Shown: in pieces, positions 1,166-28,573 of the stretch
How positions within the stretch are numbered: the stretch's first letter is position 1
Layout: the number at the start of each line of letters is the position of its first letter
Source: a virus
IMG/VR virus record: IMGVR_UViG_3300045988_149268
Span: 1-64,000 of that record
Direction: 5' to 3' (one strand)
Length of the DNA: 64,000 nucleotides
Notes under the pieces: generated by a model
The model's database searches: none
Seen by the model: only the letters and a program-made list of their open reading frames with translations
Told to the model about the DNA's origin: nothing
Program-made: the position numbers and the translations under genes

Positions 1166-3379
1166 ATGTTTGATATTGTAATTCCAACTTATAATACCCC
1201 AGAAAATTTGTTATTAGATTGTTTAAATGGCATTTAGCAATAGCAAATTGATCATTCACTAATTAATGTTATTTTAATTAATGATGCTGGTCAAGCAATT
1301 GATATAGATAGTATTAAATCTTTATATGATTTTCAAATATCATATTATATCAACGATACGAATGTCGGCCCAGGTATTTGTCGGCAATTTGGAGTAGAAA
1401 AAGCATCAGATTGGATTGTTTTTTGCGATGCTGATGACATCTTATTAAAAGACGCTTTATCACAATATTTTAATTTTATTCAACAGGATAAAGACATTGA
1501 CATTATTTATCCCGCACAGATTAATTTGTTGGATGAATTTTTAGCGCAATAGATTGTGTCAAATAATTTTCCAGATGGTTTATATGCAGTATGTGTCAAT
1601 AAGCATTTTTTAACACAACATCCTGATATTAAATTTTTGCCGTATTATTATCACGAAGATGGCTTATTTACTATGTAGTGTGCAATTCATAATCCTCGTG
1701 CAGTCGGCGCAAATGGAGAAATTATAGCTCATAGAATTGGCAGATATGAGTCTTTAGCAACTTTTAAAAACACAGCTATTTATGATTTAAGCTTGATGGC
1801 AAGCGCATATGCGATTTATCATCATTTTTTAAATGAGCAAGAACAACTATACCTATATAATGATTAGAGAAATTTTTATATAGAAATATTATTAAGTCGT
1901 TTGACATTTTCTGATGCTCTTGAGAATAAAGATAATCAAACATTTGTAAATCTACTGTCATTTTTTATCACTTGTATTAAAAGAGCTTTACCTTATGAAA
2001 TAGTAGAATATTTTATACAAAATTTTAGTGAAACGATTTTTAATTGTAATATTTATGATTACTATCCATCTAATTTTTTAAATGATTTAACGCAATTCTG
2101 TGAAAATGACAATCAGACAATTTTTAATTATTTATCTCAAATGGGCAAATTGGCGTTTGAGACATATGTTAAATTAAATAATATTGCATTGCCAGAATGT
2201 ACAATCACTATTCCAACTTATAATAACTCTAAACAATAGATTGAAAGAATTTTAAATCATTTTAGTAGATAGAGTGCCGCAAAGTATATTAATATTTTAA
2301 TTATAGATGATGGCTCAACAAATAATGAACTATCTCTTGTTGAATACCCAGAAAATTTGAAGATATAGATAATTAGATCTAAATTTAATAAGGGTGTTGG
2401 ACGAGCCAGACAAATTGGGCTTGATAATGTTCATACCCCATATGTAATGTTTTTTGATATGGACGATGATATTATTTATGACGACATCGTTTGGCATTAT
2501 CTTGCATTTTTCATGGCACACCCTGATTATACCGGTATTCGAGGAAAAGAAATTTGGAGAAATCCAGCGCAAAATGATAAATTACAAGAAGATGTCTCAT
2601 TAAATAGTTTACACGGACTGTGCTGTAAAGTAGACACATTAAGAGAATATGATATTAAATTTAAACCTTGGCAATATGCTGAAGATGGAATGTTTACTTG
2701 CACAATACTTTTATATGGCTTAAAAATAAAATCTTTAGAAAAAGAGACATTTTATTTCAGAGATCGTGGTTATTTAACTGAAAATATTGAAAGCACTGTT
2801 GGTAATTTAAATTTTGCCACAGATTCTTGTTTGATTATAAGAGCGCTTTTGGAAATTATGGATAGTGCAAAAGCGAATCTTGAAATTATAGAAAATTGTA
2901 AAGATTGTCTTATTAATGAAGTTTAGAATTTAAGTAATTCTATGTTTCCATATGGAAAAAATGAAGAACTTGATACGATAAAAACACAATTTTTACGCGA
3001 TCACGTAATAGATCCAAGAATTAAAAATATTTTATCTATTTATTATTTATATGAGGCAGTTCGTGTTATACCCTTTGCCATATTAAAAGCTATAAAACAA
3101 TAGCCTTGGGCTTGGGAAAATTCATCTTTAATAATGGCTATAGATAATTTACTCGCTAATGATGACTGTTATTATATAAAAATGGCATCAGGCACCGAGA
3201 ACAAAATTTATACAATAGATGGATTAGAAAAAGAAACAATAGAATGGTTTCATGACTATTTGGACTATTGTAAAAATTTACAATAGGAATGTAAAGATTT
3301 AATAATAAATCTTCCACCTTAGGCTATAAAACATTAGCCTTGGAACTATAAAACATATCAATGGAAAGGAAGAAACTAA
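1166..3379 (+). CDS. Tandem family-2 glycosyltransferase (two GT2 domains plus C-terminal extension), read through ~13 in-frame TAG codons
   Basis: Frame is open from ATG 1166 to TAA 3377 except for TAG; two copies of the GT2 signature (IPTYN...IND/DDGS...DADD and ITIPTYNN...IIDDGST...FDMDDD); track fragments 1901-2239 and 2447-2926 are in this same frame. Confidence 0.65.
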
Positions 3380-3732: not shown

Positions 3733-4791
3733 ATGTCTACTTTAAAGATAGGGCCTGGAGCAGCATCTTTAGGCAATGGTGACAGAAAGGCCGGAGTGCG
3801 ATGTAATTTTAATGCCAGTGGAACCGCAGTTGGTTATGATACAAATACTTATAATTATTCGTTATTTTCTGTAACAATGAATATTTCTCTTTGTAAATAT
3901 TATTCTGTATACGGATATTTTGACGTATATAATCAAGCGGGCACCTTAATTGGAAGAACTAAATAGTGGAATGTGGCAGAAAATGCTGGTTCTGTTAAAG
4001 CCTCCGGTGCATCAGCTATATCTTGTACTTTTACTTTAATTAATACCAATCTCGCTGCAGCAATGTAGACGAGTAGCTTTTATTTAATTATTCGTAGAAG
4101 TGGCGGAAGTGGCAACTGCTGTAATATTAGATCTGGTTGTACTGGCACGCTTACTATTAATTATACAAGAACTACTAAAAATAGCCCCCCAGTTCATCCT
4201 ACTACAATTTATTATCCGGCCACAAACGGTGTAAAGACATATAATACAAAACCATACTTTTCATCTTTAACTGGCACAGACCCCGATGGGAATAATGTGC
4301 AATTAGGTTATGCAATTTATGATACAACTACAAAAACATGGCCACAAGCGACAAAATGGTTAGATGGATGGCATAGTGGAGGAACAAGAGTATATTGGTC
4401 ACATTAGACTGCGCTAACCACTGGTCATTATTATTAGCTTTATACATATGCAAGAGATACAAGTTATACCGTTGGAACGGGCAGTTCTGGTCTTCGTGGT
4501 TTTTATGTTTTAGATAATGGGCTATCTATTGGCAGTATAATTGATGACGCGACGATAGATACGTTATAGACAAAAATTAATAATGTTCAAGCATATTACG
4601 GACAAACAAAAAAAATTTTTACTGTTTGTGATAATGGCACAAAATTAAACCGTTCACAAATAGTTGAATTAGAAAATGCAATTGAAGGAACCCCATATAT
4701 TGCTACTACTGCCTATACATCTCCTGCGGTAGGAGACAAAGCGATTGCCAGTCAATTATCTTCCATTAACACAATTATTGGAAATGCTTGA
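3733..4791 (+). CDS. Hypothetical Thr/Gly-rich protein (possible surface or structural protein), 5 in-frame TAG
   Basis: ATG 3733 after RBS ggaggaattaaa; frame open to TGA 4789 apart from 5 TAG; track piece 3700-3966 is its N-terminus. Confidence 0.6.
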
Positions 4792-5323: not shown

Positions 5324-5399
5324 GCGGGATTAGCGCAGTTGGTAGCGCAACTGGCTTACATCCAGTCGGTCGGCAGTTCGAGTCTGTCATTCCGCACCA
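5324..5399 (+). tRNA. tRNA-Val (anticodon UAC), CCA encoded
   Basis: Acceptor GCGGGAT/ATTCCGC, D-arm GCGC..GCGC, anticodon stem ACTGG/CCAGT with loop CTTACAT, T-arm GGCAG TTCGAGT CTGTC, ACCA end. Confidence 0.75.
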
Positions 5400-5450: not shown

Positions 5451-6074
5451 ATGGCCGACAATCTGTTAAATATTAGTATTCCAAAAGCGGTAGAAAATCT
5501 TTAGCTTCCAGATCCAACTCTTTTATTTTATTATTAGAATTTGGAAAAACGAATTTTTTGGTTGGATGAAGAAGTTAGTGATTATACTCTCGATTTAATC
5601 AAATATATTATCAAATGGAACGAAGAAGATGACAATATCGAACCAGAAAAACGTAAACCTATTAAAATTTTCTTTTTCTCTCCTGGTGGTGATCTTGAAG
5701 TTAATAATGCGCTCATTGACACCATTCAACTAAGCACAACTCCCATTTGGGGCATTAATGTTGGAAAATGTTTCAGCGCTGCGGCATATATTTTCTTATC
5801 TTGCCATAAGCGTTTTACAATGCCACGAGCGCAACTTTTACTCCACCAAGGCTCAGGCACTTTTTCTGGAACCTATCAAGAAATATTGCCACAAGTTATG
5901 TCGTATCAGCAACAAATTGATGATTTGGCGACTTTTGTTGCTAGCCGCACGCAATATACAGAAGAAGAAATAGCAGAAAATATCACCAGTGATTGGTATA
6001 TTCCAGTAGAAGAAGGTTTAAAAAAGGGAGTATATCATGAATTAATCATAGATATGATGATATTTTTTAATTGA
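5451..6074 (+). CDS. clpP: ClpP-family serine protease (2 in-frame TAG near N-terminus)
   Basis: S14 signature: FFFSPGGDL, catalytic Ser in GKCFSAAA, His in LLLHQGSG; ATG 5451 with RBS ggaggtacat; track ORF 5541-6074 is the same frame. Confidence 0.7.
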
Positions 6075-6093
6075 AATTAAGGAGGAATGAATT

Positions 6094-6915
6094 TTGTATC
6101 AAGGATATAAAATTATTCAACCAACAGACATCGAATTGGCCGCGTTTTATATGGAGAAAAACTTTAATCATTTTAGTTGTTTAGAAAATGAATATGTCAT
6201 TTTTAAGAACGAAGATAATGAAATAATTGATAAATATCGTTGGACAGGCACTGAGTATAAGCAAGTAAGATATGAACCTATTAAGAATATTTATACTGGC
6301 TGTATTCGCCCACGCAATCCCCAACAGTGTTTGGCTTTTGATATGCTTCAAGATAACAAAACAACTATCAAACTATTGACTGGTGTGTTCGGAAGCGGAA
6401 AAACTATGTTGATGATATTGCACGCGATTGATATGATTCAACGCGGTTTCGCTGATAAGATTGTATGGGTGCGCAATAATATTGAGGTTAAAGACTCTGT
6501 GCCACTGGGTGCATTGCCTGGCACCGCAGATGAAAAACTTCTTCCTTTTGCTGGCCCACTTCTTGACCATATTGGCGGTTTAGAAGGTATGTATGCAATG
6601 ATGGATAATAATCAATTAGAACTACAGCATCTTGGTTACATTCGTGGCAGAGATATTAAAAATTCGATTATTATTGCCAGCGAGGCAGAGAATTTAACGA
6701 CTCAGCATATTCAGCTTTTAATTGGTCGTGTAGGTGAAGGTTCTCAACTTTGGCTTGATGGCGACCATAAACAAGTTGATAAGCAAGTTTTTAAAGATAA
6801 TAGCGGGCTATTGAAAGCTGTCGAGAGATTGGCTGGACAATCCTTATTTGGTTATGTTGATTTACCAATTAGTGAACGTTCTGCCACAGCTAAACTTGCG
6901 GATTTATTAGATTAA
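6094..6915 (+). CDS. phoH: PhoH-like ATPase
   Basis: Walker A GVFGSGKT, PhoH-type C-terminal region (IIIASEAENLTTQ, LDGD); TTG start after aaggaggaatg. Confidence 0.7.
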   Translation: MYQGYKIIQPTDIELAAFYMEKNFNHFSCLENEYVIFKNEDNEIIDKYRWTGTEYKQVRYEPIKNIYTGCIRPRNPQQCLAFDMLQDNKTTIKLLTGVFGSGKTMLMILHAIDMIQRGFADKIVWVRNNIEVKDSVPLGALPGTADEKLLPFAGPLLDHIGGLEGMYAMMDNNQLELQHLGYIRGRDIKNSIIIASEAENLTTQHIQLLIGRVGEGSQLWLDGDHKQVDKQVFKDNSGLLKAVERLAGQSLFGYVDLPISERSATAKLADLLD

Positions 6916-6922
6916 AAATTTT

Positions 6923-6946
6923 GGGGAGTAGCATATGCTACTCCCC
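6923..6946 (+). terminator. Rho-independent terminator (perfect palindrome)
   Basis: GGGGAGTAGCAT/ATGCTACTCCCC followed by T-rich tract. Confidence 0.7.
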
Positions 6947-6948
6947 AT

Positions 6949-6977
6949 TTGCTTTTTATAAAAATAAATGATATAAT
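6949..6977 (+). promoter_or_regulatory. Sigma-A type promoter TTGCTT-N17-TATAAT
   Basis: Promoter-family member upstream of 6999 gene. Confidence 0.55.
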
Positions 6978-6998
6978 ATAAATAAAGAAGGTGAGAGA

Positions 6999-7787
6999 AT
7001 GGGATATTGGGAAAGAAAACATGAAATGTCCGCAAAAGCAATAGCACATACAGAAGAAATGAGTTTAAAGTTTGCGCGAGAAATTGAAAATAGCGTAAAA
7101 AATACTAAAATGTATCGTGGCGATATTAAGCGTGAAGAATATGTTAATGCTCCTTATAGACGAATAATTTTAGATCCAGAAACTACGACTCAGGCATTGG
7201 AAACATACTTAAAAGATGGTGAAAAGATTGCGATTCTAAATTTTGCCAGTTATAAAAATCCAGGTGGTTGTTTCATTGATGGCTCAACAGCACAAGAAGA
7301 ATGCTTATGTCATAGTTCTTTTTTGTATAATGTGCTTAAAGAATTTCAAAAATCTTATTATGATGTTAATGCTCAACAATTAAATCATTCTTTGTATACA
7401 AATGCCGGTCTTTATACGCCAAATGTAGCATTTAACTTCAACGGCTTTGACTGGATAAAAACGAATGTTATTACTTGCGCGGCGCCGAATTTTAAATCTG
7501 CTTATCGCTATTGCGACATATCCAAAGAAGAAAATTCCAAAGTTCTTAGAGAACGTTGTCGTTTTGTATTGGATATTGCTTATGATAATCAGATAGAAAC
7601 TTTAATTCTTGGTGCTTTTGGTTGCGGTGTTTTTGGGCAAGACCCAGAAGAAGTTTGCACTATTTTCCTTGAGGAAAATAATAAAATGAATCGTCCTTTT
7701 CATAAAATTGTTTTTGCCGTCCCCCAAGGGACAGGACTTAATGCTATGGCAAATTATTACGCTTTTAAGAGAATCATTTTCGGATAA
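6999..7787 (+). CDS. Bacterial-type PARG / DUF2263 (TIGR02452-like) macrodomain ADP-ribose hydrolase
   Basis: PARG signature GG(G)-X6-QEE present as NPGGCFIDGSTAQEE; size ~260 aa. Confidence 0.55.
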   Translation: MGYWERKHEMSAKAIAHTEEMSLKFAREIENSVKNTKMYRGDIKREEYVNAPYRRIILDPETTTQALETYLKDGEKIAILNFASYKNPGGCFIDGSTAQEECLCHSSFLYNVLKEFQKSYYDVNAQQLNHSLYTNAGLYTPNVAFNFNGFDWIKTNVITCAAPNFKSAYRYCDISKEENSKVLRERCRFVLDIAYDNQIETLILGAFGCGVFGQDPEEVCTIFLEENNKMNRPFHKIVFAVPQGTGLNAMANYYAFKRIIFG

Positions 7788-7816
7788 TTGATTTTCTTTA
7801 AAAAAAATGATATAAT
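7788..7816 (+). promoter_or_regulatory. Sigma-A type promoter TTGATT-N17-TATAAT, overlapping stop of upstream gene
   Basis: TTGATT 7788-7793, TATAAT 7811-7816. Confidence 0.55.
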
Positions 7817-7840
7817 ATTTATAGAAAGTGAGGGAAAAGT

Positions 7841-8645
7841 GATGACAGGAGAAATTCAAATTCAAGATGTAAGTAAATATACTACGTCTATGTCAAAAAG
7901 TATGATTGATAAAATGTTTTTTATGGATAAAATTAATAGTTCCATAAAAGTCATTTTTGATTATGGATGTGCTGATGGAGCATTGATTAATTTCCTTGCA
8001 CCACTTTTTCCAGATATTGCCTTTATCGGATATGATGCCAGTGCAGAAATGATAGAACATGCAATTAGCAATAAGACATATGAGAATGTTTCATTTATAG
8101 ACAATTTGGACAATTTTTCTGCTTGGCTGTCTGAAAATCATTTTGCACCGAATCAATGCGCAATTAACCTTTCTTCATTGATTCACGAAGTTTATAGTTA
8201 TTCTTCAGTTCAAGAAATTGAAAAATTTTGGAATTTTGTAAACAAGAGTGGATTCGAATATATTATTATCCGTGATATGTGCTTGGATGCGGCGGCGCAT
8301 CGACCAGCACTGAAAGAAGATTTGATTAAGGTGCGTAGTCGATATGCTGCGGATAAAATTCGTGAATTTGAAAACATTCATGGTAGTATATGCGATAATT
8401 ATAATTTAATTCACTTTCTATTGAAATATCGCTATACTGAAAATTGGAACAGAGAAGTTCACGAAAATTATCTCCCACTTGCTGTTGAGGATATTGCTGG
8501 AAAAATTGATACTCATTATGAGTTAATTTATTTTGACCATTATATTCTTCCTTTTTTGGCAAACATTGTCCAAGTTGATTTTGATATTACGATAAAAGAT
8601 TACACCCATATCAAATTTATCTATCGACAGAAAGGAAATAAATAA
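7841..8645 (+). CDS. Class I SAM-dependent methyltransferase (substrate unknown; no DNA-MTase motif IV)
   Basis: Motif I VIFDYGCADGAL; start ATG 7841 after RBS agtgagggaaaag (track shows N-terminal over-extension from 7788). Confidence 0.55.
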
Positions 8646-8646
8646 T

Positions 8647-8946
8647 ATGGATGAAACTCTTGTTCTTTGGACGCATGGTGGCTGGATTCCTTATGCAGGA
8701 ATTTACGCAACAGATGTTAGCCGTATTCAAGATTTTAACGTAGTGATTGATGCTTTATGTTCTTCTGCAGGGCGTGAAATGTATAATCGCATTATTGTTT
8801 CAAGTTTTAATGAAATGCAACTATCTTTTGGGCTGGGAACTACAGGAGAATTGCTTCAAAAGCTTCATGAGCTGGAAGTAAAATATGATTATACGGTAAT
8901 TGTACTTCCTCATTCAATAGAAATTGAACATTATTTGGGAGTTTAA
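8647..8946 (+). CDS. Hypothetical protein
   Basis: 99-aa ORF tightly packed between neighbours. Confidence 0.45.
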   Translation: MDETLVLWTHGGWIPYAGIYATDVSRIQDFNVVIDALCSSAGREMYNRIIVSSFNEMQLSFGLGTTGELLQKLHELEVKYDYTVIVLPHSIEIEHYLGV

Positions 8947-8947
8947 G

Positions 8948-9748
8948 ATGCCAAAATTTACAAAATGGGAGCAGGCAATGATGTGCTTGCGACCTCAATA
9001 TAAAACAAAAAATTTTACTTATGAAGAAGCAAAATTATATCTGTTGAACACCGGCTTTGGTAATTTTACTAAAACTTCATGGAATGCGGCAATTAAGCAT
9101 AATATTATTAAAATTGATAATAATAATACTGCTTATTTTCTTTCAGAAAAAAATGAAGCAATTGATTCAGATTGGACGACTTCGCATCGTAAATATTTTA
9201 TATGCGAGCAAGATAAAACAAAAAAAGGATATGGAGATTTCTTTACAAAAGATGAGTTAATTTCTATTAACAATATTTATTTTAATTGGAAGTCAACTTG
9301 TGAGACATATCAATATTATGGATTTCGTAGACCAAATTTGCCTGAACCTATTAGCGAAGGTTTACCTAGCGCACTTTTTGGCTGGGCACGAACAAATAAT
9401 ATGCCACTTGAAAACATTGATGGTTCAGCAGATCTTGTCGATACAGTTAATGGGGATGCTATTCAAATTAAAGGTATTTCTGCTTATGATGAAAAAGATT
9501 GCGGTCCCACTTCATTTGGTCCTAATTCTAAATTTGACAGATTAATTGTTTTGTATGTTCGCCTGGACGAAGATAAAGTGTATTTTTATGAATTTCCAGA
9601 TGCTCAAGATTATAAGAAATGGAAAGTTAATGGAAATCAAACTGTTGCAGATCAACAATTTCAAAATAAACGACCAAGATTAAATTTAATTCCAATCTTG
9701 AAGGAGAGAGGGATTCAACCTTTCTTTGTATATAATTTTAATGTTTGA
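8948..9748 (+). CDS. Hypothetical protein; candidate restriction endonuclease partner of adjacent C5-MTase (unproven)
   Basis: ATG 8948 with RBS tgggagtttaag; immediately upstream of a DNA cytosine-5 MTase; no confident nuclease motif. Confidence 0.4.
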   Translation: MPKFTKWEQAMMCLRPQYKTKNFTYEEAKLYLLNTGFGNFTKTSWNAAIKHNIIKIDNNNTAYFLSEKNEAIDSDWTTSHRKYFICEQDKTKKGYGDFFTKDELISINNIYFNWKSTCETYQYYGFRRPNLPEPISEGLPSALFGWARTNNMPLENIDGSADLVDTVNGDAIQIKGISAYDEKDCGPTSFGPNSKFDRLIVLYVRLDEDKVYFYEFPDAQDYKKWKVNGNQTVADQQFQNKRPRLNLIPILKERGIQPFFVYNFNV

Positions 9749-9773
9749 CTTATTATAAAATTTTTGATATAAT
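9745..9773 (+). promoter_or_regulatory. Sigma-A type promoter TTGACT-N17-TATAAT
   Basis: Consensus hexamers, upstream of MTase gene. Confidence 0.55.
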
Positions 9774-9796
9774 TATAAAAAAGGAGCTGAGAAAGA

Positions 9797-19275: not shown

Positions 19276-20022
19276 ATGAAGCACTATGTTGCTACTGATA
19301 TACATGGCAATCTTGCTATGTATACAAAAATGATGAGTTGGTTAAATAGCCAAGACGAAGAGTTTGTATTATATTGTTTAGGTGATGCAGCAGATCGCGG
19401 CAAAGATGGCTATAAGATTATGGAGCTTTTGTTAAATGATCCAAAAGTTATTTATCTTAAAGGTAATCATGAAGATTTATTCGTACGTGCTGCGTTTGAA
19501 TATGCCGATTTAGCAATGGAATTGGATTGCACAAAACGAGAGTTAATGAAACGATTTAACAGTGATTTGGCTTCGCTTACAGATTATGGCGTAGATATGC
19601 GATTGCATTATTGTAATGGCGGAAAATATACGCTTAAAGCATGGATTGACGCTGGATGTAAAATGGATATTATCTATAAATTAAAAAAACTGCCTCTAAA
19701 AACGTCTTTTGAAAATTTTGATATGTGCCACGCTGGATGTGAAATTTCTGACTGGAACAAAGACAATGAATCTGCGCTTCTTTGGGATAGAACACATTTT
19801 AAAATGCCTTGGAAAACAGATAGAGTTTTGATTCATGGACATACGCCGATAAATCATGTTCCTGTTGATTTTAAAGATTGGCATGTAAAGTCTTATTGTA
19901 ATGGGCAGAAATATGATCTCGATACTATATGTTGGCGCACAAATATCTTGACTATGCTTTGTCTTGAAACGCAAGAAATTATAACTCTTACTAAAGATGA
20001 TACTGTATCATTTGATTTTTAA
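19276..20022 (+). CDS. Lambda-PPase/ApaH-like calcineurin-type metallophosphoesterase (2 of 3)
   Basis: TDIHGN, GDAADRG, GNHE motifs; ATG 19276 after aggaggtgttgggt. Confidence 0.65.
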   Translation: MKHYVATDIHGNLAMYTKMMSWLNSQDEEFVLYCLGDAADRGKDGYKIMELLLNDPKVIYLKGNHEDLFVRAAFEYADLAMELDCTKRELMKRFNSDLASLTDYGVDMRLHYCNGGKYTLKAWIDAGCKMDIIYKLKKLPLKTSFENFDMCHAGCEISDWNKDNESALLWDRTHFKMPWKTDRVLIHGHTPINHVPVDFKDWHVKSYCNGQKYDLDTICWRTNILTMLCLETQEIITLTKDDTVSFDF

Positions 20023-20371: not shown

Positions 20372-20857
20372 ATGTCTTCTCATCTTTATGTTATGGTTGG
20401 CGCGCCTGGTAGTGGCAAAAGCACTTGGATTCGTAAGAATATGGGTATCTTATTCAAGGAATCTATGTGCGTTTATGTTAGCCGTGATGCCATTCGTTAT
20501 GGTATGCTTAATGATTCTGATGAATATTTTTCTCATGAAAAGGAAGTTTTTAATGAGATGATTTATCAGATTGTTGATGGGCTTAAAAAGGGATTTAATG
20601 TATTCGCCGATGCTTCTCATTTGAATCACGCGTCTCGCGCCAAGCTCATTAATGCGATTAATCGGCATTATATTGATTATGACGTGCGTTTCGTATTTTT
20701 TGATACTTGTTTAGCAACTTGCATTAAGCGTAATGCTCAGCGAACTGGGCGCGCACTTGTCCCTGAGTCAGTAGTTGGTCAGATGTTTGGTAATATGACA
20801 GTTCCAACCGTAGGTGAATTTCCAAATTGTGTTGGAGTTTGGATGGTGAGAGAATGA
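20372..20857 (+). CDS. pnk: Polynucleotide 5-prime-kinase, T4 Pnk kinase-domain-like (no HAD phosphatase domain)
   Basis: GAPGSGKSTWIRKN, SRDAIRYGM, ADASHLNHASR, RNAQRTGRALVPESVVGQMF all parallel T4 Pnk kinase motifs (recalled from memory, not searched). Confidence 0.6.
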   Translation: MSSHLYVMVGAPGSGKSTWIRKNMGILFKESMCVYVSRDAIRYGMLNDSDEYFSHEKEVFNEMIYQIVDGLKKGFNVFADASHLNHASRAKLINAINRHYIDYDVRFVFFDTCLATCIKRNAQRTGRALVPESVVGQMFGNMTVPTVGEFPNCVGVWMVRE

Positions 20858-21423
20858 TTTATTTTTCTTCAGATTATCATTTTAATCATGATAGAGAGTT
20901 TATTTATCAAGCGCGTGGTTTCCCGAATGTTGAAGAAATGAATGAAGCGATTATCCAGAGACATAATGAAATTGTGAAGCCAGAAGATATTATTTATGTG
21001 CTTGGTGATTTGTGTCTTGGTGGTGGTTCTGAGGAAGCACTTCAAAAAAATAAAGAACTAATTGAACGATTAAATGGCACTCTTTATATCATCCGTGGTA
21101 ATCATGATAGTGATAATAGATGTAAAATGTATCGCTCTTGTAAAAATGTTAAACGAGTTACTGCGGCGATGTATTTAAATTATAACGGTTATCATTTTTA
21201 TCTTAGCCATTACCCTACACTAACTGGTAATCTGGAAAAAGAATCTTTAAAGCAGTGCACGATTAACCTTTATGGGCATACGCATCAAGAAAAAAATTTT
21301 TACCGAGATATACCTTTTATGTATCATGTTGGTGTTGATTCCCACGATTGTTATCCCGTCTCTGTTGATGCTGCTATTGCTGAAATGAAAGCAAAAGTGC
21401 AAGAATGTTTAAACGAACTTTGA
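20854..21423 (+). CDS. Calcineurin-like metallophosphoesterase (3 of 3), overlapping/operonic with Pnk-like kinase; candidate 2-prime,3-prime-phosphate healing enzyme
   Basis: SDYHFNH, GDL, GNHD, GHTH motifs; start ATG 20854 after ggtgagaga. Confidence 0.6.
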   Translation: MIYFSSDYHFNHDREFIYQARGFPNVEEMNEAIIQRHNEIVKPEDIIYVLGDLCLGGGSEEALQKNKELIERLNGTLYIIRGNHDSDNRCKMYRSCKNVKRVTAAMYLNYNGYHFYLSHYPTLTGNLEKESLKQCTINLYGHTHQEKNFYRDIPFMYHVGVDSHDCYPVSVDAAIAEMKAKVQECLNEL

Positions 21424-21446: not shown

Positions 21447-22901
21447 ATGACGTATATTATGATTGGTATTATTGTGCTCGCTGTTATTGCTGTTGCTACC
21501 CTTGCCAGTATGAGCTATGTTAAGGCTCCGCCGGATCAGGCGTTTCTAATTTCTGGTCCACGCAAGGATATGAAGATTATCTCTGGTCGAGCAGGTTTTA
21601 GAGTGCCATTTGTTGATCGACTTGATAAGTTGTATCTTGGCATTATTGGCGTAGATGTAAAGACCAAGAACTCTGTCCCAACTGCCGAATATATTAATGT
21701 ATATGTTGATGCAAACGTGAATGTTTGCGTTGGGAAGTCTAATACACTTATGGCGCTTGCGGCGAAGAATTTTCTTAATCAAAAGCCAGATGCCATTTCT
21801 CGTAAAGCACAGGAAGTCCTTGAGGGCAATATGCGTGAAATTGTTGGTCAGATGAAGTTGACTGATATGGTAACTGACCGCAAGGCTTTTGCAGAAAAGG
21901 TTATGGAAAATGCCGCGCCTGATATGGAAAAGCTGGGTCTTGAAATTATTTCTTTCAATATTCAGAATTTTAGTGATGAAAATAATGTCATTAATGATCT
22001 GGGTATTGATAATGTTGAGCAAATTAAGAAGAACGCAGCAATTGCTAAGTCTGATGCAGAACGTGATGTCGCTATTCAGAAGGCAGAAAACAAGAGAAAG
22101 GCTAATGAAGCTCAGGTTGAAGCTGCTACTCAGATCGCGCAACAAAATACCGCTCTTGACATTAAAACCGCAGAATTGAAGGCATCGAGTGAAGTTAAGC
22201 GTGCTGCTGCAGATATGTCGTATGATATTCATAAGGCAGATCAGCAAAAGGAACTTGATGTTGCTCGCACCAATGCGCAGATTGCTCAGGCAGAGCGTCA
22301 GGTTGAATTGAAGAATCAGGAAATTGCGCTGAAGGAAAAGGAGCTTGATGCTCTTGTGCGCAAGCAGGCTGACGCAGATTTGTATGCGGCGCAACAGAAG
22401 GCTCAGGCTGATTTGGTGCGTCGTCAGAAGGAGGCCGAAGCTAAGGCTTATGAGGAAATTCAGCGAGCTAAGGCCGCGAAGGAATCTATGGAACTTGAGG
22501 CTGAAGCTCGTAAGATTGTCGCGGAAGCTGATTTGATTACTGCGCAGAAGGCTGCGGAAGGTATTCGTGCTAAGGCGGAAGCTGAAGCAGAAGGAATTCG
22601 TCAGAAGGGCCTCGCCGAAGCTGAAGGTATTGATAAGAAGGCAGAAGCGCAGAAGAAAATGGGCGAAGCATCTGTTTTGGAAATGTATTTCGCTGCGATG
22701 CCGCAGATTGCACAGGCTGTTGCCGCACCTCTTGCTAATGTTGATTCTATTACCATGTATGGTGATGGTAATCAGGCAAAGATGGTGCAGGATATTACGA
22801 CTACGATTAATCAGATTATGAAGGGCGTTAATGACGCTACTGGTGTTGATTTGAATAGCGTTCTTGCTGGTTATATCGGTGGAAGAATGGCTGAAAAGTA
22901 A
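21447..22901 (+). CDS. Flotillin-like SPFH/band-7 domain protein (FloT/YuaG-like); GC-richer
   Basis: N-terminal TM, SPFH core, long Ala/Glu/Lys/Gln-rich coiled-coil (flotillin repeats), C-terminal region. Confidence 0.65.
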   Translation: MTYIMIGIIVLAVIAVATLASMSYVKAPPDQAFLISGPRKDMKIISGRAGFRVPFVDRLDKLYLGIIGVDVKTKNSVPTAEYINVYVDANVNVCVGKSNTLMALAAKNFLNQKPDAISRKAQEVLEGNMREIVGQMKLTDMVTDRKAFAEKVMENAAPDMEKLGLEIISFNIQNFSDENNVINDLGIDNVEQIKKNAAIAKSDAERDVAIQKAENKRKANEAQVEAATQIAQQNTALDIKTAELKASSEVKRAAADMSYDIHKADQQKELDVARTNAQIAQAERQVELKNQEIALKEKELDALVRKQADADLYAAQQKAQADLVRRQKEAEAKAYEEIQRAKAAKESMELEAEARKIVAEADLITAQKAAEGIRAKAEAEAEGIRQKGLAEAEGIDKKAEAQKKMGEASVLEMYFAAMPQIAQAVAAPLANVDSITMYGDGNQAKMVQDITTTINQIMKGVNDATGVDLNSVLAGYIGGRMAEK

Positions 22902-23915: not shown

Positions 23916-25411
23916 ATGGCTGATTATAGCGTAAAAGATATAAAAACGCTGGAAGGTATTGAAGCTATTCGGCTTAGACCCGGTATGTATATTGGTTCAG
24001 TCGGGCCAGAAGGTGTTCGTCATATTACACTTGAAATTATTTCAAATGCTGTTGATGAGTATCTTAATGGTGCGTGTTCAGAAGTTCATGTCACTATTGA
24101 AAATAATAAAATTCAAGTTTCAGACAATGGTCGTGGTGTTCCTTTTGGTAAAGCAAAAGATGGCTCTGAAACACTTATTAATATTTATACAAAACTTCAT
24201 ACTGGCGCAAAATTTGATAGCGAAGGAAAAACTGGATATAATACATCTGGTGGTATGAATGGCGTAGGCGCAAAGGCAACGAATGCTCTATCATCTTGGT
24301 TCCATGTAACATCTATTCGAGATGGACAAATAGCCAATGCTTGGTTTGAAAAGGGTAAACTTAAAGAGTTTAAGACTGAAAAAACCGATGCGAAAAATAG
24401 TGGAACTACTGTTGAGTTCATTCCTGACGAAGAAATTTTTAAAGAAGGGACAGAACTCGACCCTGTTGCTTTGAAAAAGCAGTTGCAGGAACTTGCTTTT
24501 TTGTCTCCTGGTCTAAAATTTGTTCTATGTATCAATAGCAAGTGTGAAGAAATTTCAAGTAAAAATGGTCTTCTTGATTACTTGGATTACCTTTCCAAAG
24601 ATAAAGATGTATTGACATCAAAATTTTTTGCAGAGGCAAACGAGAATAGAATTGGCGTTAAAGTCGCTTTGCAGTATGTTAATGCGTATAGTGATGTCTA
24701 TAAACTATATACAAATAGCATTCCGAATAGTGGCGGCACGCATTTGACTGGTTTTAGAACCGCTTTAACACAATCTATTAACGTTTATGCCAGAAATAAA
24801 GGTTTTCTAAAAGAAAAGGATGAAAATTTTTCAGGAGAAGATTTAAAAGAGGGTCTAATTCTTGTCCTTTCTTTAACGATGCCAGATCCTGTTTTCTCTG
24901 GACAAACTAAAGATACTTTATCTTCAAGCGAGGGCCGCACCATTGTGCAGCGTTTGTGTGCTGCGAGTCTTGAGACATGGCTTAGCACGAATGAAAAAGA
25001 TGCAAAAGCAATTATTAATAAGGCACTCTTGGCACGAAAGGCAAGAGAAAATGCGAGAAAAGCAAAAGAAACAGTAAGAAATACTTCTAAGGCTTCTCGT
25101 ATCACTCTGCCTGGCAAATTGGCAGATTGTTCAAGCAAAAAGAGGCTTACGGATTGTGAGATTTTTATCGTTGAAGGCGACAGCGCCGCAGGTTCAGCTA
25201 AAGAAGCACGTGATCGTAATACTCAAGCAATTCTGCCAGTCCGAGGTAAAATTCTTAATGTATTAAAAGCGGATTTGCATAAAGCGATGAGCAATGCCGA
25301 AATTCAAAGTATGATTACCGCTTTTGGCCTTGAGATTAAAGATGGTAAAATTGTTTTGAACGAAGATAAATTACGCTATGGTAAAATTATTATTATGGCT
25401 GATGCAGACGT
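23916..25411 (+). CDS. Type IIA topoisomerase ATPase/TOPRIM subunit (GyrB/T4 gp39-like), exon 1
   Basis: GHKL ATPase N-terminus, TOPRIM EGDSAAGSAK, ends in MADADV (conserved DADVDGSHI interrupted); exon ends with T as required for group I 5-prime splice site. Confidence 0.75.
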
Positions 25412-26460
25412 CAACTAAAAATCGGCGTATGAAAAACTTTTCGCATATCAAGCGGGTCAGAATCTATTAATTATATGTAGAGGGTTCTCATATAATAATA
25501 GAAGATGGCTAACGGGAAACCCTAAACTGAAAAGCAAGGGAACCCCGTGGGAAACAAATATTAATCCATCTTCTAAGGAGATGGGAAAATGATTGGAATT
25601 TATAAAATTACCAATAAAATATCAGGAAAATCTTATATTGGTTAGTCTAATGATATTGAAAGAAGATTTAAAGAGCATTAGACAATAGGCAATAAAAGTA
25701 GAATTCCTGTTGATATCGCTATTCAAAAATATGGAAAAGAATCATTCACATATGAAATAATTGAACTTTGTTAGATTGAACAATTAAATGAAAAAGAAGA
25801 ATACTGGATTAAATTTTATGATTCATATAACAATGGTTATAATTGTAATCCTGGCGGAAATCAATCTTCAATAGGAGAAAACAATGGACGAGCGAAATTA
25901 ACTATTGAAGATGTAGAAATTATTCGGCAAGCCTACGCCACGCATAAAAAACAAAGGGAAATATATGAAAAATTTAAAGATAAAATTTCATTTAATTATT
26001 TTCAAAATGTTTGGGCGGGCAAAAGCTGGTCGCACATAATGCCAGAAGTTTTTACAGAAGAAAATAAACATTATTATATTTATGAAAATAGTAAAAACGG
26101 CAATGGTTTTAATTCTTAGTTTTCAGATGAAGAAATTGTTTATATTAGACAAAGATATGTGAATGAAAGTGCAAAACAGATATATAACGACTATAAAAAT
26201 AGAATTAAATTTCAAAGTTTTTAGGCAATATTATGGGGTCGTTCATATTCTGATTTGCCATTATACAAGAAAAAAGAAAAGCGATGGATTAATATTTGAA
26301 CCTGTATCGACTATCTCCTAAGCCTTATGGGCAGGAGAGTAGGGCTACTATTGATACGTAGTCTGGTTTTAGGAAACGAAGCCAGTTAAATGCCGAAATG
26401 GTTTCCTCTCTTTATGAGAGTAAAAGATAGTCAGCGCTCATAGAAATATGAGAATAAGTG
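25412..26460 (+). mobile_element. Group I intron interrupting topoisomerase subunit gene, carrying GIY-YIG homing endonuclease
   Basis: Exon1 stops right after DADV; downstream frame resumes with DGSHIRILFFTFIWKFCPELIEKGYIY; intron ends with G; internal free-standing ORF with own RBS. Confidence 0.7.
25589..26299 (+). CDS. GIY-YIG homing endonuclease (intron-encoded; 3 in-frame TAG)
   Basis: GIYKITNKISGKSYIG-Q-SNDIERRFKEH motif; RBS ctaaggagatggg. Confidence 0.7.
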
Positions 26461-26860
26461 TGATGGAAGTCATATTAGAATTTTGTTTTTTACCTTTATT
26501 TGGAAGTTTTGTCCAGAGCTAATTGAAAAAGGATATATTTATGCCGCGGTCCCGCCTCTATATCGAGTTATTAAAGGCACTAAATCTATCTACATTAAAG
26601 ATGATAATGCTCTTGCCGAATACCGTAAGAAACATAGTGGAGAAAAATATGAATTGCGTCGTTTCAAAGGATTGGGCGAGCAAAGTGTAGAGGAACTTGA
26701 AGAAAGCACAATGTCTCCTGCTACAAGAACTCTTAAACAAATTACTATGGAAGATGCCATCGCAGCGAGTCAAGTTTTTAACAACCTAATGGGTGAAACT
26801 GTAACGTTGCGTAAACAGTTTATTGAAAAAAATGCTTGGAGGGCAAACGTAGATGTCTGA
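26461..26860 (+). CDS. Type IIA topoisomerase subunit (GyrB-like), exon 2
   Basis: DGSHI..PELIEKGYIYAAVPPLY..FKGLGEQSVEELEESTM matches GyrB C-terminal region. Confidence 0.7.
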
Positions 26861-27140
26861 TTATATTAAGAAAGTTCCAACAGATGACTATCTTACTTGG
26901 ATAAATAAAAAGGGCGAAGTCTGCCCTCGGATGCCTAAAGATTGGAAAGATGAAGAGAAATATGGTAAGGACTATTTTGGAGCCTTTATGAATGCTGTAT
27001 GTATTAAATTAAACTCCTATGAAGAATATTATAAAAATCCTCTTCTAATGATTTCAGAAATGGTTAAGCTCCGTAGTGAGAACGAAAGACTCACTAAGGA
27101 AAATGATAGACTAATGCAGAGGTTGAAGAAACATGGATGA
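26853..27140 (+). CDS. Hypothetical protein
   Basis: 95-aa ORF overlapping upstream stop. Confidence 0.45.
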   Translation: MSDYIKKVPTDDYLTWINKKGEVCPRMPKDWKDEEKYGKDYFGAFMNAVCIKLNSYEEYYKNPLLMISEMVKLRSENERLTKENDRLMQRLKKHG

Positions 27141-27318
27141 ATCAATATTCTGTCCTAACTGTAAAACTGGTAAAATTGTAATAACACAGTTTAAAATAAT
27201 TATTCAAGAGATAAATAAAAATCAATTTCATATCATCGCAGATGCAGAATGTGAAAAATGTAAAACGCAATATAAGTTGGAAGGTGATTGCAATTCAAAA
27301 TATTTGGAAACATTTTAG
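27133..27318 (+). CDS. Small zinc-ribbon protein
   Basis: CPNCKTG...CEKCKTQ. Confidence 0.4.
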   Translation: MDESIFCPNCKTGKIVITQFKIIIQEINKNQFHIIADAECEKCKTQYKLEGDCNSKYLETF

Positions 27319-27448
27319 AAAAATTCAAACGCATAGAAAATGGGTTCGATATTATTGTTTTAAATGCGGAATTCCTTGGCAGGGGATTAAACATGATCTA
27401 TCTAAATATTCCCCAACAGAATTTTTTGAAAGCGTAAAATATTATTAG
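27242..27448 (+). CDS. Hypothetical protein (overlaps previous ORF in another frame; one of the two may be spurious)
   Basis: 68-aa ORF with CFKCG motif. Confidence 0.25.
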   Translation: MQNVKNVKRNISWKVIAIQNIWKHFRKIQTHRKWVRYYCFKCGIPWQGIKHDLSKYSPTEFFESVKYY

Positions 27449-27547
27449 GGAACTTCATCTCCAATTAATGCTGCAAAAGCAGACAAGGGATATTCTGATG
27501 CTTGGTTTCATCATAAAGGAAGGAATAAACATCATTATGAATATTGG

Positions 27548-27862
27548 ATGGACAATTTTGATGATGGCGGACAAAATATCATTATGCCATTTAAATATTG
27601 GGTTGAATTAATTTGTGATTATCTTGGAGCTAGTCATGCTTATAATGACAATGATTTTTCTTATTATAAAGAGTTTAAATGGTGGGAAGAAAAAAGTAAA
27701 CATTGCGCCATGAATCCAGCATTAATTAAAGCAACAACGGCAGTATTTGAAGCTTTGATGCGACAAGAAAATGCTTATTATCTTGATTTTTATTATCATC
27801 CGGATAAACTGTTAAGTAAAGCTTGGCTTAAACAGTATTATGACAAATATGTCAATTTATAA
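27548..27862 (+). CDS. Hypothetical protein
   Basis: 104-aa ORF. Confidence 0.45.
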   Translation: MDNFDDGGQNIIMPFKYWVELICDYLGASHAYNDNDFSYYKEFKWWEEKSKHCAMNPALIKATTAVFEALMRQENAYYLDFYYHPDKLLSKAWLKQYYDKYVNL

Positions 27863-28343
27863 TATTTATACAGATGGTAGCGCTACCAAAGAGCAATCGG
27901 GCTTTGGTTTTGTTGTCATAGACATAAATCAGACTATTATTCATATGGTTTCACAAGTTCTTCCTCCCTCTATTACAAATCAACAAGCTGAACTGCTGGG
28001 AGCAATTGCTGGATACCATTGGATAAAAAATAATATAAAAAATGTTTTTTAGATTAATATATATTCTGATAGTGCGTATTTAGTAAACTGCTATATGCAA
28101 CAATGGTATAAAAAATGGATTAATAACGGCTGGATTAATTCAAAAGGTCAAGATGTTGCCAATAAACCACTATGGTTAGAATTATTGCCTGCATTTAATG
28201 ATGAAACTGTTAATTTTTTAAAAATTGCTGGACATTCAGGAAAAGTATATAATGAATTGGCGGATGCCTTGGCAACACATCGACTTGACAAAGTAAAAAA
28301 AATATATTATAATATTGAAAGAGAAAAGGAGTTAAATGAATGA
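27840..28343 (+). CDS. rnh: Ribonuclease H (1 in-frame TAG)
   Basis: YTDGS...TNQQAELLGAI...IYSDSAYLVNC...KIAGHSGKVYNELADALA catalytic DEDD pattern; track pieces 27840-28052 and 28095-28343 share frame. Confidence 0.75.
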
Positions 28344-28573
28344 AAGAAAACATTATTCAAACACCAATAGTAGAAGAAACCGAACAATCATTTTTGGACT
28401 ATTCTCTTTCTGTAATTACTGATAGAGCTATTCCATCTGCGGAAGATGGATTTAAGCCTGTTGTGAGACGTATTCTTTATGATATGTCTGATAATGGTTA
28501 TGCAAGTAACAAACAATATGTTAAATGCGCTTCTCCTGTTGGCGATACAATGGGTCGTTTTCATCCTCACGGT
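28340..28573 (+). CDS. Type IIA topoisomerase DNA-cleavage subunit (GyrA/T4 gp52-like), exon 1
   Basis: N-terminus SFLDYSLSVITDRAIPSAEDGFKPVVRRILY..GRFHPHG(D); interrupted inside conserved HPHGD-SSIYDAL. Confidence 0.75.

Follow-up and report, generated by a model that had tools for sequence, protein, structure and literature searches.

A bacterial-type PARG carried by a gut phage, in a gene context that points to nucleic-acid end repair

Why should a phage carry an ADP-ribose hydrolase? The question is raised by a gene in a 64,000-nucleotide stretch of the IMG/VR record IMGVR_UViG_3300045988_149268 (the window, below), for which an initial annotation had proposed a PARG-like macrodomain and a part in counter-defence. 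The carrier of the gene is a ~165 kb gut phage: that the PARG is phage-encoded is borne out by two endolysins, matches to primase and RNA-ligase PHROGs, SPbeta-like replication genes and relatives in IMG/VR. The host is probably a Firmicute. TAG is read as a sense codon in the window, and in alignments of homologues glutamine is the residue most commonly aligned to it (16 of 71), without being dominant. A nucleotide search of positions 5500-12500 against deposited phages gave no match; the phage therefore belongs to a lineage without a cultured or deposited close relative. The features on which the assignment of the gene depends are as follows.

6999..7787, + strand: PARG coding sequence, 262 aa, ATG to TAA, without in-frame TAG (open reading frame, profile and structure matches)
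7239..7301, + strand: PARG signature N81-E101 (NFASYKNPGG-C-FIDGSTA-QEE) with the predicted catalytic pair E100/E101 (conservation, alignment to DrPARG)
7611..7634, + strand: diphosphate-binding loop G205-A-F-G-C-G-V-F212 (conservation; aligned to GAWGCGVF of DrPARG)

The intact 262-codon frame coincides exactly with 6999-7787 (+), and its product is almost certainly a PARG-family enzyme. It matches the bacterial-type PARG family under each of its names: Pfam PF10021 (PARG_cat_microb, formerly DUF2263) at 5.4e-29 and 101.9 bits (cut-off 23.5), and NCBIfam TIGR02452 at 3.2e-55 and 187.5 bits (cut-off 50) over residues 19-257 of 262, that is, over its full length. Among solved structures, phmmer against the PDB returns the PARGs of Deinococcus radiodurans (DrPARG, 5.5e-25) and Thermomonospora curvata (TcPARG, 1.1e-20), in alignments that end before the C-terminal helix. 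At the level of sequence the match to the family is thus well beyond chance. The AlphaFold model (AF2; pLDDT 95.5, pTM 0.93), in which N-terminal helices 3-24 and 26-35 precede an alpha/beta macrodomain core, leads to the same family: the top 13 Foldseek matches are all TcPARG or DrPARG (E 4e-19 to 7e-15), and TM scores are 0.78-0.82 to 3sig/5zdb as against at most 0.55 for MacroD types, for which E reaches only ~1e-6. The best matches, then, are PARG crystal structures rather than some non-macrodomain fold.

The motif quoted in the initial annotation, NFASYKNPGGCFIDGSTAQEE, is present as residues 81-101 (nt 7239-7301), while the spacing given for it (GG-x6-QEE) needs correction: it is GG-x8-QEE, equivalent to GGC-x7-QEE in the canonical GGG-X6-8-QEE notation. 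The signature G89-G90-C91-x7-Q99-E100-E101 fits that notation, with two consecutive glutamates, and aligns with the GGG...QEE of DrPARG; its third 'G' is naturally variable in the PARG subfamily (M/G/K/R/A/C) and is C91 in the phage protein. Conservation of the catalytic QEE, singled out beforehand as the point on which the assignment should stand or fall, is complete: G89, G90, G95, Q99, E100 and E101 are invariant among 127 diverse homologues. In the diphosphate loop G205, A206, G208, G210 and F212 are likewise invariant and C209 and V211 more than 90% conserved, and from the motif we infer that F212 is the equivalent of TcPARG F227. With its catalytic Glu-Glu pair intact the phage PARG is, as far as its residues tell, apparently active.

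The phage protein is a new sequence in an already known, structurally characterised and very large enzyme family (7,279 clusters at 50% identity), for which PHROGs holds no family of its own. PARG homologues are present in 337 IMG/VR contigs. Beyond its own clade the closest homologues are ~50% identical, and those with names are Lachnospiraceae/Blautia proteins. Long homologues include one tandem PARG and one fusion to a YAcAr SLOG domain, and otherwise carry no added Pfam domain; the fusion points towards soluble ADP-ribose derivatives instead of nucleic acids. Three diverged relatives keep the gene in a common slot: the window phage, L004 (82%) and L008 (47%). Within the ClpP-PhoH-PARG block it has changed more than its flanking genes when related phages are compared: its product is 47% identical, theirs 73-76%. 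A clean cassette swap of the PARG between the window and L008 is unsupported, divergence on the left side being graded; the sharp boundary at 7845 in this comparison belongs to an unusually similar MTase-hyp99 cassette.

The PARG appears, on the strength of its upstream sequence, to have its own promoter. The immediate surroundings comprise:

5451/5541-6074: ClpP-like (Pfam)
6094/6151-6915: PhoH (Pfam)
6922..6957, + strand: terminator-like hairpin with an 11-bp stem (7 GC pairs) and a T-run, between PhoH and PARG
6969..6977, + strand: extended -10 promoter-like element TGaTATAAT (found by reading the sequence)
6988..6995, + strand: Shine-Dalgarno AAGGTGAG upstream of the ATG at 6999
7788/7842-8645: SAM-MTase (Pfam)

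The ClpP, PhoH and SAM-MTase neighbours named at the outset are thus real, and the further statement that each has its own promoter can be kept in part. Candidate sites precede the PARG, where a weak -35 (TTGCTT at 6949-6954, 3/6 match) leaves the promoter-like site below the scan threshold, and the MTase (TTGATT-17-TATAAT, 7788-7816); the region upstream of PhoH holds no comparable site. The absence of TAG from the PARG was also considered as a sign of 'early' expression and rejected, with 1.2 expected, P(0) = 0.30, and 45 of 79 ORFs free of TAG.

The gene context, on a scale unnoticed in the initial annotation, points to RNA or nucleic-acid end repair. Beyond a methyltransferase/restriction-like island (7842-10765), and 3-14 kb downstream of the PARG, lie:

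10844..12340, + strand: Ro/TROVE-like DUF2828+DUF7788 protein (Pfam; phrog_850 'RNA-binding protein', 2e-128)
12428..13198, + strand: RlaP-family nucleotidyltransferase, an RNA-ligase-associated Pol-beta NTase (PF10127 1.1e-5, above cut-off; phrog_388)
13183..13896, + strand: calcineurin-like phosphoesterase 1 (PF00149 6.4e-12)
14781..16094, + strand: Rnl5-type RNA ligase, N-terminal OB and adenylyltransferase domain (PF21189 2.6e-7, PF09414 7.5e-5; phrog_968 'RNA ligase', 1.4e-68; weak PDB matches to Naegleria RNA ligase)
19276..20022, + strand: calcineurin-like phosphoesterase 2 (PF00149 4.7e-11)
20372..20857, + strand: AAA_33 P-loop kinase, candidate polynucleotide kinase (PF13671 2.7e-19)
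20854..21423, + strand: calcineurin-like phosphoesterase 3, Metallophos_2 (PF12850 9.2e-10)

These genes form no tight operon with the PARG: PARG, ligase and kinase are spread over 14 kb, the PARG being 7 kb from the ligase and 13 kb from the kinase. In the relative L004, the PARG directly adjoins the Ro-like DUF2828 gene, and in phage L085 a tight operon runs PARG, Rnl5 ligase, AAA_33+HD, a 71-aa ORF and NAD-dependent DNA ligase (LigA), with a 26-nt gap and an 8-nt overlap. Rnl5, AAA_33, RlaP or DUF2828 occurs within 10 kb of the PARG in 7 of 17 viral lineages and in 5 of 80 bacterial loci (Fisher p = 7e-4), a statistic that is rough since the 17 lineages are not phylogenetically independent and large phages cluster accessory genes anyway. 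The viral count rises to 10 of 17 when the CCA-adding enzyme is included; removal of the window's own clade and of a phage-like 'bacterial' contig leaves p = 0.005. Bacterial PARG contexts are heterogeneous, and in 6 of 80 loci the gene adjoins KptA/Tpt1, the enzyme type that produces 5'-P-ADPr ends. Apart from two tRNAs, scans against Rfam found neither a Y-RNA-like partner for the Ro-like protein nor any other ncRNA.

The likeliest role of the phage PARG, to which we give somewhat less than even weight, is de-ADP-ribosylation of RNA or DNA ends coupled to repair, because an RNA-repair context coincides with published PARG activity on RNA 2'-OH and 5'-phosphate groups; we infer from this its substrate, its link with repair and its benefit in counter-defence. 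Published biochemistry has bacterial PARGs taking ADP-ribose off the 2'-OH and the 5'-phosphate ends of RNA; of the hydrolases tested, none but SCO0909 and DRB0099 undo the 2'-OH ADP-ribosylation of RNA by RhsP2; and repair of ADP-ribosylated RNA or DNA ends by bacterial-type PARGs was proposed in a 2025 study. RlaP extends the 3' ends of damaged RNA with NMPs (PMC12776372). The pathway might run as follows. The PARG would be transcribed from its own extended -10 promoter, after the terminator, giving a macrodomain with an N-terminal helical extension in which E100/E101 would hydrolyse O-glycosidic bonds at C1'' of ADP-ribose. Host ADP-ribosyltransferase toxins or defences may place ADP-ribose on the ribose 2'-OH or on 5'/3'-phosphate ends of RNA, from which the PARG would remove it; the AAA_33 kinase, the phosphoesterases, RlaP, the nick-sealing Rnl5 ligase and the Ro-like protein could then make the damaged RNA, or a nicked nucleic acid, whole again. 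A stronger form of this proposal is possible, though on the doubtful side: that phage PARGs are a previously unrecognised step of RNA repair, 'de-capping' host-ADP-ribosylated 2'-OH/5'-phosphate RNA ahead of Pnk/phosphoesterase, RlaP and Rnl5. If this is true, they would constitute a new enzymatic anti-defence class against RNA-targeting ADP-ribosyltransferases, and RNA-ADP-ribosylating defences would be common in gut Firmicutes. For the end-repair idea itself the L085 and window loci offer independent comparative support, and compact gene sets for its direct test; if it is right, phages would use enzymes to undo host attack by RNA ADP-ribosylation as they do for RNA cleavage. The literature searched gave no biochemistry of a phage PARG.

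A role in counter-defence is plausible. The initial annotation had proposed one with reversal of DarT-type ADP-ribosylation of DNA bases as its leading example; the hydrolase identity underlying that proposal holds, whereas the example finds little favour, since base-linked ADP-ribose is in published work the substrate of DarG/TARG1 or NADAR enzymes. DarTG does defend bacteria against phages, and phages in turn carry orphan antitoxin-like hydrolases against it (PMC11825919), yet in the literature searched it is DarG/TARG1-type macrodomains that undo thymidine-ADPr and NADARs that undo guanine-ADPr, PARG-type enzymes not figuring among the reported reversers of base-linked ADPr, and the macrodomain hydrolases tested on guanosine-ADPr RNA, the bacterial PARG SCO0909 included, had no activity. 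The phage protein is, moreover, PARG-type and not TARG1/DarG-type in both fold and sequence (Foldseek, PDB sequence search), and PADLOC, DarG models included, gives no match to it; nor does any PADLOC-DB family match the MTase, hyp99, DUF2828, RlaP, Rnl5 or AAA_33 proteins. Action on DarT products is thus highly improbable, and cleaning ADP-ribose off damaged RNA is more likely. Classical de-(poly)ADP-ribosylation of proteins – trimming PAR or ADP-ribose laid down by a host PARP-like or ART defence, or tempering a phage ART in an Alt/Mod-like takeover – is unlikely rather than far-fetched. The family was founded on this activity (TcPARG, DrPARG), and among jumbo phages ARTs are common and PARPs occasional (PMC7824862); the ART search covered the window, and ~100 kb of the phage genome lies outside it. 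However, no ART or PARP family is found in the window (Pfam; tblastn with KptA), canonical PARGs leave the protein-proximal ADP-ribose, so that a PARG alone would not fully reverse protein modification, and the window contains no MacroD, ARH or TARG1 partner. The partner search comprised precomputed Pfam annotation from ~-3 to 53.6 kb, Pfam on the remaining ORFs, and tblastn with proteins of bacterial PARG islands, among which KptA, Nudix, ARH, MacroD, NADAR and TROVE gave no tblastn match in the window.

Soluble ADP-ribose-derived immune signals, such as the 1''-2' gcADPR of Thoeris, offer another substrate, on which the PARG would act as an enzymatic anti-signalling factor. This molecule has the same ribose-ribose O-glycosidic linkage as PAR, and chemical analogy therefore favours such a reading. 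So do the YAcAr SLOG fusion of one homologue, a cRec-domain gene 9.5 kb upstream of the PARG (L001 344-658), a domain that Aravind and colleagues tie to ADPr/cyclic-nucleotide processing, and the prediction in the literature that soluble ADPr derivatives are targets of phage Macro domains. But an active site shaped for terminal ADP-ribose may be unable to accommodate a cyclic substrate, the literature searched links no PARG with gcADPR and phage, no experimental precedent exists, and no Nudix, NADAR or NAD-synthesis genes lie near the PARG, the neighbourhood pointing to RNA repair and not to NAD/ADPr salvage; we regard this activity as quite improbable. It is also decidedly unlikely, if somewhat less so, that the gene is an accessory one drawn from the host pool without a dedicated anti-defence role (in ADP-ribose/NAD housekeeping, for instance) and kept in a variable region. 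The Lachnospiraceae/Blautia affinity of its nearest named homologues outside the clade, its divergence relative to the ClpP/PhoH flanks and the heterogeneity of bacterial PARG contexts would suit such an origin; against it stand the retention of the slot in all three relatives, the intact catalytic residues, and the number of IMG/VR contigs with a PARG, which argues for a selected function.

For nucleic-acid end repair, the closest parallel is D. radiodurans PARG (DR_B0099; PDB 5ZDA-5ZDG), which shares family, fold, signature and diphosphate loop with the phage protein at ~30% identity, differs in having glycine at the third GGG position where the phage has Cys, and removes 2'-OH-linked ADP-ribose from RNA. 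Genes for a polynucleotide ligase and a 5'-OH polynucleotide kinase are linked to its own, as they are in the window phage and above all in L085: the Deinococcus operon is LigB-PARG-Pnk (DR_B0100-DR_B0099-DR_B0098), with the Rnl5 founder DraRnl at the nearby-numbered DR_B0094 (PMC5397189), and the L085 operon PARG-Rnl5-Pnk/HD-LigA mirrors it. DrPARG, however, is chromosomal/megaplasmid, DNA-damage-induced and part of a tight three-gene operon, whereas the window PARG is phage-borne, with a putative promoter of its own and 7-13 kb from ligase and kinase. The best structural match is T. curvata PARG (3SIG/3SIH; Foldseek E 4e-19, TM 0.80-0.81; ~30% identity), which has the GGG-X6-8-QEE signature and whose catalytic E114/E115 have equivalents in the phage protein. 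TcPARG is exo-only owing to a C-terminal 'ribose cap', while the open site of DrPARG, with T267 as the endo/exo determinant, allows endo and exo activity. Streptomyces coelicolor SCO0909, placed in the same family by name without sequence comparison, has the best-documented de-ADP-ribosylation activity on RNA 2'-OH and 5'-phosphate; it is a cellular enzyme, with a proposed role in immunity against RhsP2-like toxins, where the window PARG is a phage gene.

In its kinase, phosphoesterases, RNA ligase, RlaP and Ro/TROVE-like protein the window resembles the repair systems of jumbo phages (PMC7824862) and the T4-type Pnkp with Rnl1/Rnl2, although its ligase is of the Rnl5 type (DraRnl/NgrRnl-like) in place of their Rnl1, Rnl2 or RtcB; the literature searched does not list a PARG-type macrodomain among the components of such systems. 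That large phages often carry macrodomain hydrolases is already established, and the value of the window PARG lies in its context. Carriage of this family by phages is itself already in public records, though unannotated: Prevotella Lak phages (37-42% identity) and Bacillus phage G (gp114, 32.5%) encode full-length homologues. Their lineages and hosts differ from those of the window phage, and within 10 kb of the PARG custom HMMs detect no RNA-repair gene in Lak-A1, Lak-B1, Bacillus phage G or LR756502. Bacillus phage G carries, in addition, a separate Appr-1-p macrodomain 4 kb from its PARG.

The open reading frame at 6999-7787 (+) is intact (262 codons, ATG to TAA), and the proposal of the initial annotation that it encodes a PARG-like ADP-ribose hydrolase is borne out by profiles, PDB matches and fold. 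Profile searches place the protein in Pfam PF10021 ('Microbial-type PARG, catalytic domain', 5.4e-29) and, over its full length, in NCBIfam TIGR02452 (3.2e-55); the match to the Pfam Macro profile is marginal. A sequence search against the PDB retrieves the PARGs of Deinococcus radiodurans (DrPARG; 5.5e-25) and Thermomonospora curvata (TcPARG; 1.1e-20), with which both the PARG signature and the GAxGCGVF loop align. The motif originally quoted, NFASYKNPGGCFIDGSTAQEE (residues 81-101), does contain GG and QEE, but the spacing is GG-x8-QEE (GGC-x7-QEE in GGG-X6-8-QEE notation) rather than GG-x6-QEE; the third 'G' of the textbook motif, Cys in the window protein, varies across the subfamily.

Residues G89, G90, G95, Q99, E100, E101, C104 and R186 do not vary among 127 aligned, diverse homologues (39-83% identity), nor do G205, A206, G208, G210 and F212. 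An AlphaFold2 model made from this alignment (pLDDT 95.5, pTM 0.93) was compared to known structures with Foldseek: the top 13 PDB matches are to TcPARG or DrPARG only (E 4e-19 to 7e-15, TM 0.74-0.82), while MacroD-type macrodomains reach only ~1e-6 (TM <=0.55). Since QEE is invariant and the best folds are PARG structures, the two outcomes named in advance as refuting (QEE unconserved, or a best match outside the macrodomains) are both excluded. The molecular interpretation as a bacterial-type PARG is thus supported. The protein is a further member of a known, very large family (2,593 matches in a word-indexed search; 7,279 clusters at 50% identity in an exhaustive search), whose closest members outside the phage's own clade are ~50% identical, those with names being from Lachnospiraceae and Blautia. 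Two homologues have unusual architectures: P0121 (512 aa) is a tandem double PARG, and P0181 (396 aa) joins a PARG to a YAcAr (SLOG) domain.

The window is phage: it encodes DNA polymerase III alpha, DnaB, primase, RecJ, gyrase and NrdD, SPbeta-type YorF/YorH proteins, and two endolysins on the minus strand. The host is probably a Firmicute. An identical PARG protein is found on two human-gut metagenome contigs of 165,752 and 165,708 bp (the window differs from the former at 9 of 17,787 positions), and an 82%-identical relative on a 167,692-bp contig (L004). Deposited gene calls read through in-frame TAG (13 in a 737-aa double glycosyltransferase, five in a 352-aa gene), and therefore TAG is a sense codon in this genome. 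Of the window's 79 ORFs, 34 contain in-frame TAG, 92 codons in total, with 13-14 in the double glycosyltransferase and 3-6 in each endolysin; in-frame TGA or TAA was not seen in window ORFs. Examples containing TAG are:

1166-3379
3733-4791
16168-17028
59279-60232
60653-62350

The PARG ORF has no in-frame TAG, which is uninformative because only 1.2 are expected (P(0) = 0.30). A suppressor tRNA is not among the ARAGORN predictions for the window, which consist of tRNA-Thr(CGT) at 39-114 and tRNA-Val(TAC) at 5324-5399. In homologue alignments the residue most often aligned to TAG is Q (16/71), a share that does not fix the amino acid.

The neighbours first named for the gene (a ClpP-like protease, PhoH and a SAM-dependent methyltransferase) are real. 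That each has its own promoter is only partly supported: there are promoter-like sites ahead of PARG and the methyltransferase (the latter good, 7788-7816), but a search ahead of PhoH, which ends at 6915 upstream of PARG, found none. Features around and downstream of PARG are as follows:

6922-6957, hairpin (11 bp, 7 GC) with T-run, between PhoH and PARG
6969-6977, extended -10 (TGaTATAAT), ahead of PARG
6988-6995, Shine-Dalgarno AAGGTGAG, ahead of the ATG at 6999
7842-10765, variable island downstream of PARG and before the Ro-like gene: SAM-dependent methyltransferase, 99-aa ORF, Bsp6I-like endonuclease, C5 DNA methylase
8948-9748, Bsp6I-like restriction endonuclease (weak)
9797-10765, C5 DNA methylase
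beyond the island, Ro/TROVE-like DUF2828 protein (phrog_850 'RNA-binding protein', 2e-128)
beyond the island, RlaP nucleotidyltransferase
beyond the island, three calcineurin-like phosphoesterases
beyond the island, Rnl5-type RNA ligase with N-terminal OB fold (phrog_968 'RNA ligase', 1.4e-68; weak PDB matches to the Naegleria Rnl5 ligase)
beyond the island, YqeY
beyond the island, AAA_33 kinase

Because the hairpin and T-run, the extended -10 and the Shine-Dalgarno precede its ATG, PARG plausibly heads its own transcription unit. The island is missing altogether from L004, where PARG directly adjoins the next gene. A more distant relative, L008, has only the methyltransferase and 99-aa pair, at 81-91% DNA identity as against ~70% in the flanks; recent exchange of this pair is suggested. 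The phage may also carry its own type II restriction-modification system. Beyond the island lies the group of RNA-repair-type genes. Within the window no ADP-ribosyltransferase, KptA, NADAR, MacroD, ARH or Nudix was found; PADLOC gave no match, and Rfam nothing but the two tRNAs.

PARG relatives are encoded on 337 IMG/VR contigs, the best 80 of which, together with L004 and phage G, fall into 17 lineages at 85% PARG identity. A homologue of the Rnl5 ligase, AAA_33 kinase, RlaP or DUF2828 lies within 10 kb of PARG in 7/17 lineages (10/17 if the CCA-adding enzyme is included), and a calcineurin-like phosphoesterase accompanies PARG in 10/17. With the same custom HMMs, only 5/80 bacterial PARG loci have an RNA-repair-type neighbour (7/17 vs. 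5/80, Fisher's exact P = 7e-4; P = 0.005 without the window's own clade and L092), figures that are rough, given that viral lineages are non-independent and accessory genes cluster in large phages. L092, one of the five (CANRPF010000006.1, 52,965 bp, from an 'uncultured Bacilli bacterium' MAG), shares with the window homologous genes for PhoH, RlaP, three phosphoesterases, AAA_33, Band7 and PARG; it almost certainly comes from a related phage and was binned into the bacterial MAG.

The linkage is clearest in L085, a 112 kb IMG/VR contig with a tight operon at 9983-15332: 26 nt after PARG comes an Rnl5 RNA ligase, which an AAA_33+HD kinase/phosphohydrolase overlaps by 8 nt, and then come a 71-aa ORF and an NAD-dependent DNA ligase. 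This operon corresponds, in a phage, to LigB-PARG-Pnk of Deinococcus. Not every PARG shows the linkage: those of Lak-A1, Lak-B1, Bacillus phage G and LR756502 lack it. Recurrent neighbours in bacteria differ from those in phages, and include KptA/Tpt1 in six loci (directly 3' of PARG in the closest Lachnospiraceae contig, L088), NrtR-like Nudix, ARH, MacroD, NADAR and TROVE. In four bacterial loci (L137, L142, L148, L164) PARG belongs to an 'NAD/ADPr island' together with NrtR-like Nudix, NADAR, ARH, MacroD and KptA/Tpt1.

What might such an enzyme act upon? In a panel of hydrolases, RNA 2'-OH ADP-ribosylation catalysed by RhsP2 was reversed only by PARG-type enzymes (S. coelicolor SCO0909, D. 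radiodurans DRB0099 and human PARG), SCO0909 was the most active towards 5'-phospho-ADPr RNA, and bacterial PARGs shielded cells from the RhsP2 toxin (Lu et al. 2025, PMC11833690). DRB0099 lies within the LigB-PARG-Pnk operon (PMC11833690; Schmier et al. 2017, PMC5397189), and DR_B0094 is DraRnl, founder of the Rnl5 family (PMC5397189): the phage loci repeat this Deinococcus combination. RlaP extends damaged RNA 3' ends by one or two NMPs (PMC12776372). The evidence best supports a role for the phage PARG in de-ADP-ribosylation of RNA or nicked nucleic-acid ends: it would strip ADP-ribose from the ribose 2'-OH or terminal phosphates, in concert with the end-healing and sealing enzymes of the phage and against host RNA-targeting ADP-ribosyltransferases. 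What the analysis shows of this is the enzyme's identity and its gene context; its substrate and its benefit to the phage are inferred from them. The counter-defence role originally proposed is plausible but unproven, while its example of DarT reversal is unlikely given known substrate specificities and the PARG-type fold: the macrodomain hydrolases tested had no activity on guanosine-linked ADPr, which NADARs remove (PMC11833690).

Classical protein de-PARylation fits less well: PARGs do not take off the final, protein-attached ADP-ribose, and the window yielded no partner ART. Alternatively, PARG may hydrolyse soluble signals derived from ADPr, 1''-2' gcADPR for instance. This is chemically attractive; support for it is limited to the PARG-YAcAr fusion and a nearby cRec gene, and no paper in the literature searched links PARG with gcADPR. 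That cRec gene (PF20274 cREC_REC) lies at 344-658 of L001, a locus of the same phage, ~9.5 kb upstream of PARG and beyond the window, with a PDDEXK_5 nuclease at 1449-1880; the pair is upstream in L004 too. In the jumbo-phage literature cRec domains are proposed to process cyclic ADPr or 2'-3' cyclic phosphates. That PARG is an accessory gene without a dedicated role is less likely, as it keeps the same slot across diverged relatives. Within the ClpP-PhoH-PARG block, PARG is nevertheless the most diverged (47% protein identity between window 6999-7787 and L008 10001-10753, where ClpP and PhoH have 73-76%). Similar divergence is seen in the AAA_33 kinase (40%) and third phosphoesterase (49%), so turnover of these accessory enzymes is quicker than that of the genes beside them.

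The modest interest of the gene lies in the PARG-RNA-repair linkage, which gives independent support to a recent hypothesis on bacterial-type PARG function and supplies compact operons for testing it. Published surveys of NAD/ADPr systems in phages put the share of jumbo phages with Macro domains at 56% and also treat RNA repair; PARG is not named in them, and the linkage may have been noticed earlier elsewhere.

Several other features of these genomes deserve record. A Band_7/flotillin-like protein (484 aa, 21447-22901) has conserved counterparts, 42-43% identical, in two related phages, L087 and L092. Homing-endonuclease ORFs interrupt each of gyrB, gyrA and nrdD (23916-31627; 50110-53301) and resemble insertions of intron or intein type into essential genes:

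25589-26299, GIY-YIG homing endonuclease
28802-29425, LAGLIDADG homing endonuclease
52053-52658, HNH homing endonuclease

In L004 (7767-9918, corresponding to 6094-6915 of the window) PhoH is called as two fragments of 90 and 108 aa, the matching halves of the gene being separated by ~1.1-1.5 kb of additional DNA: phoH carries an insertion, possibly a mobile element or intron.
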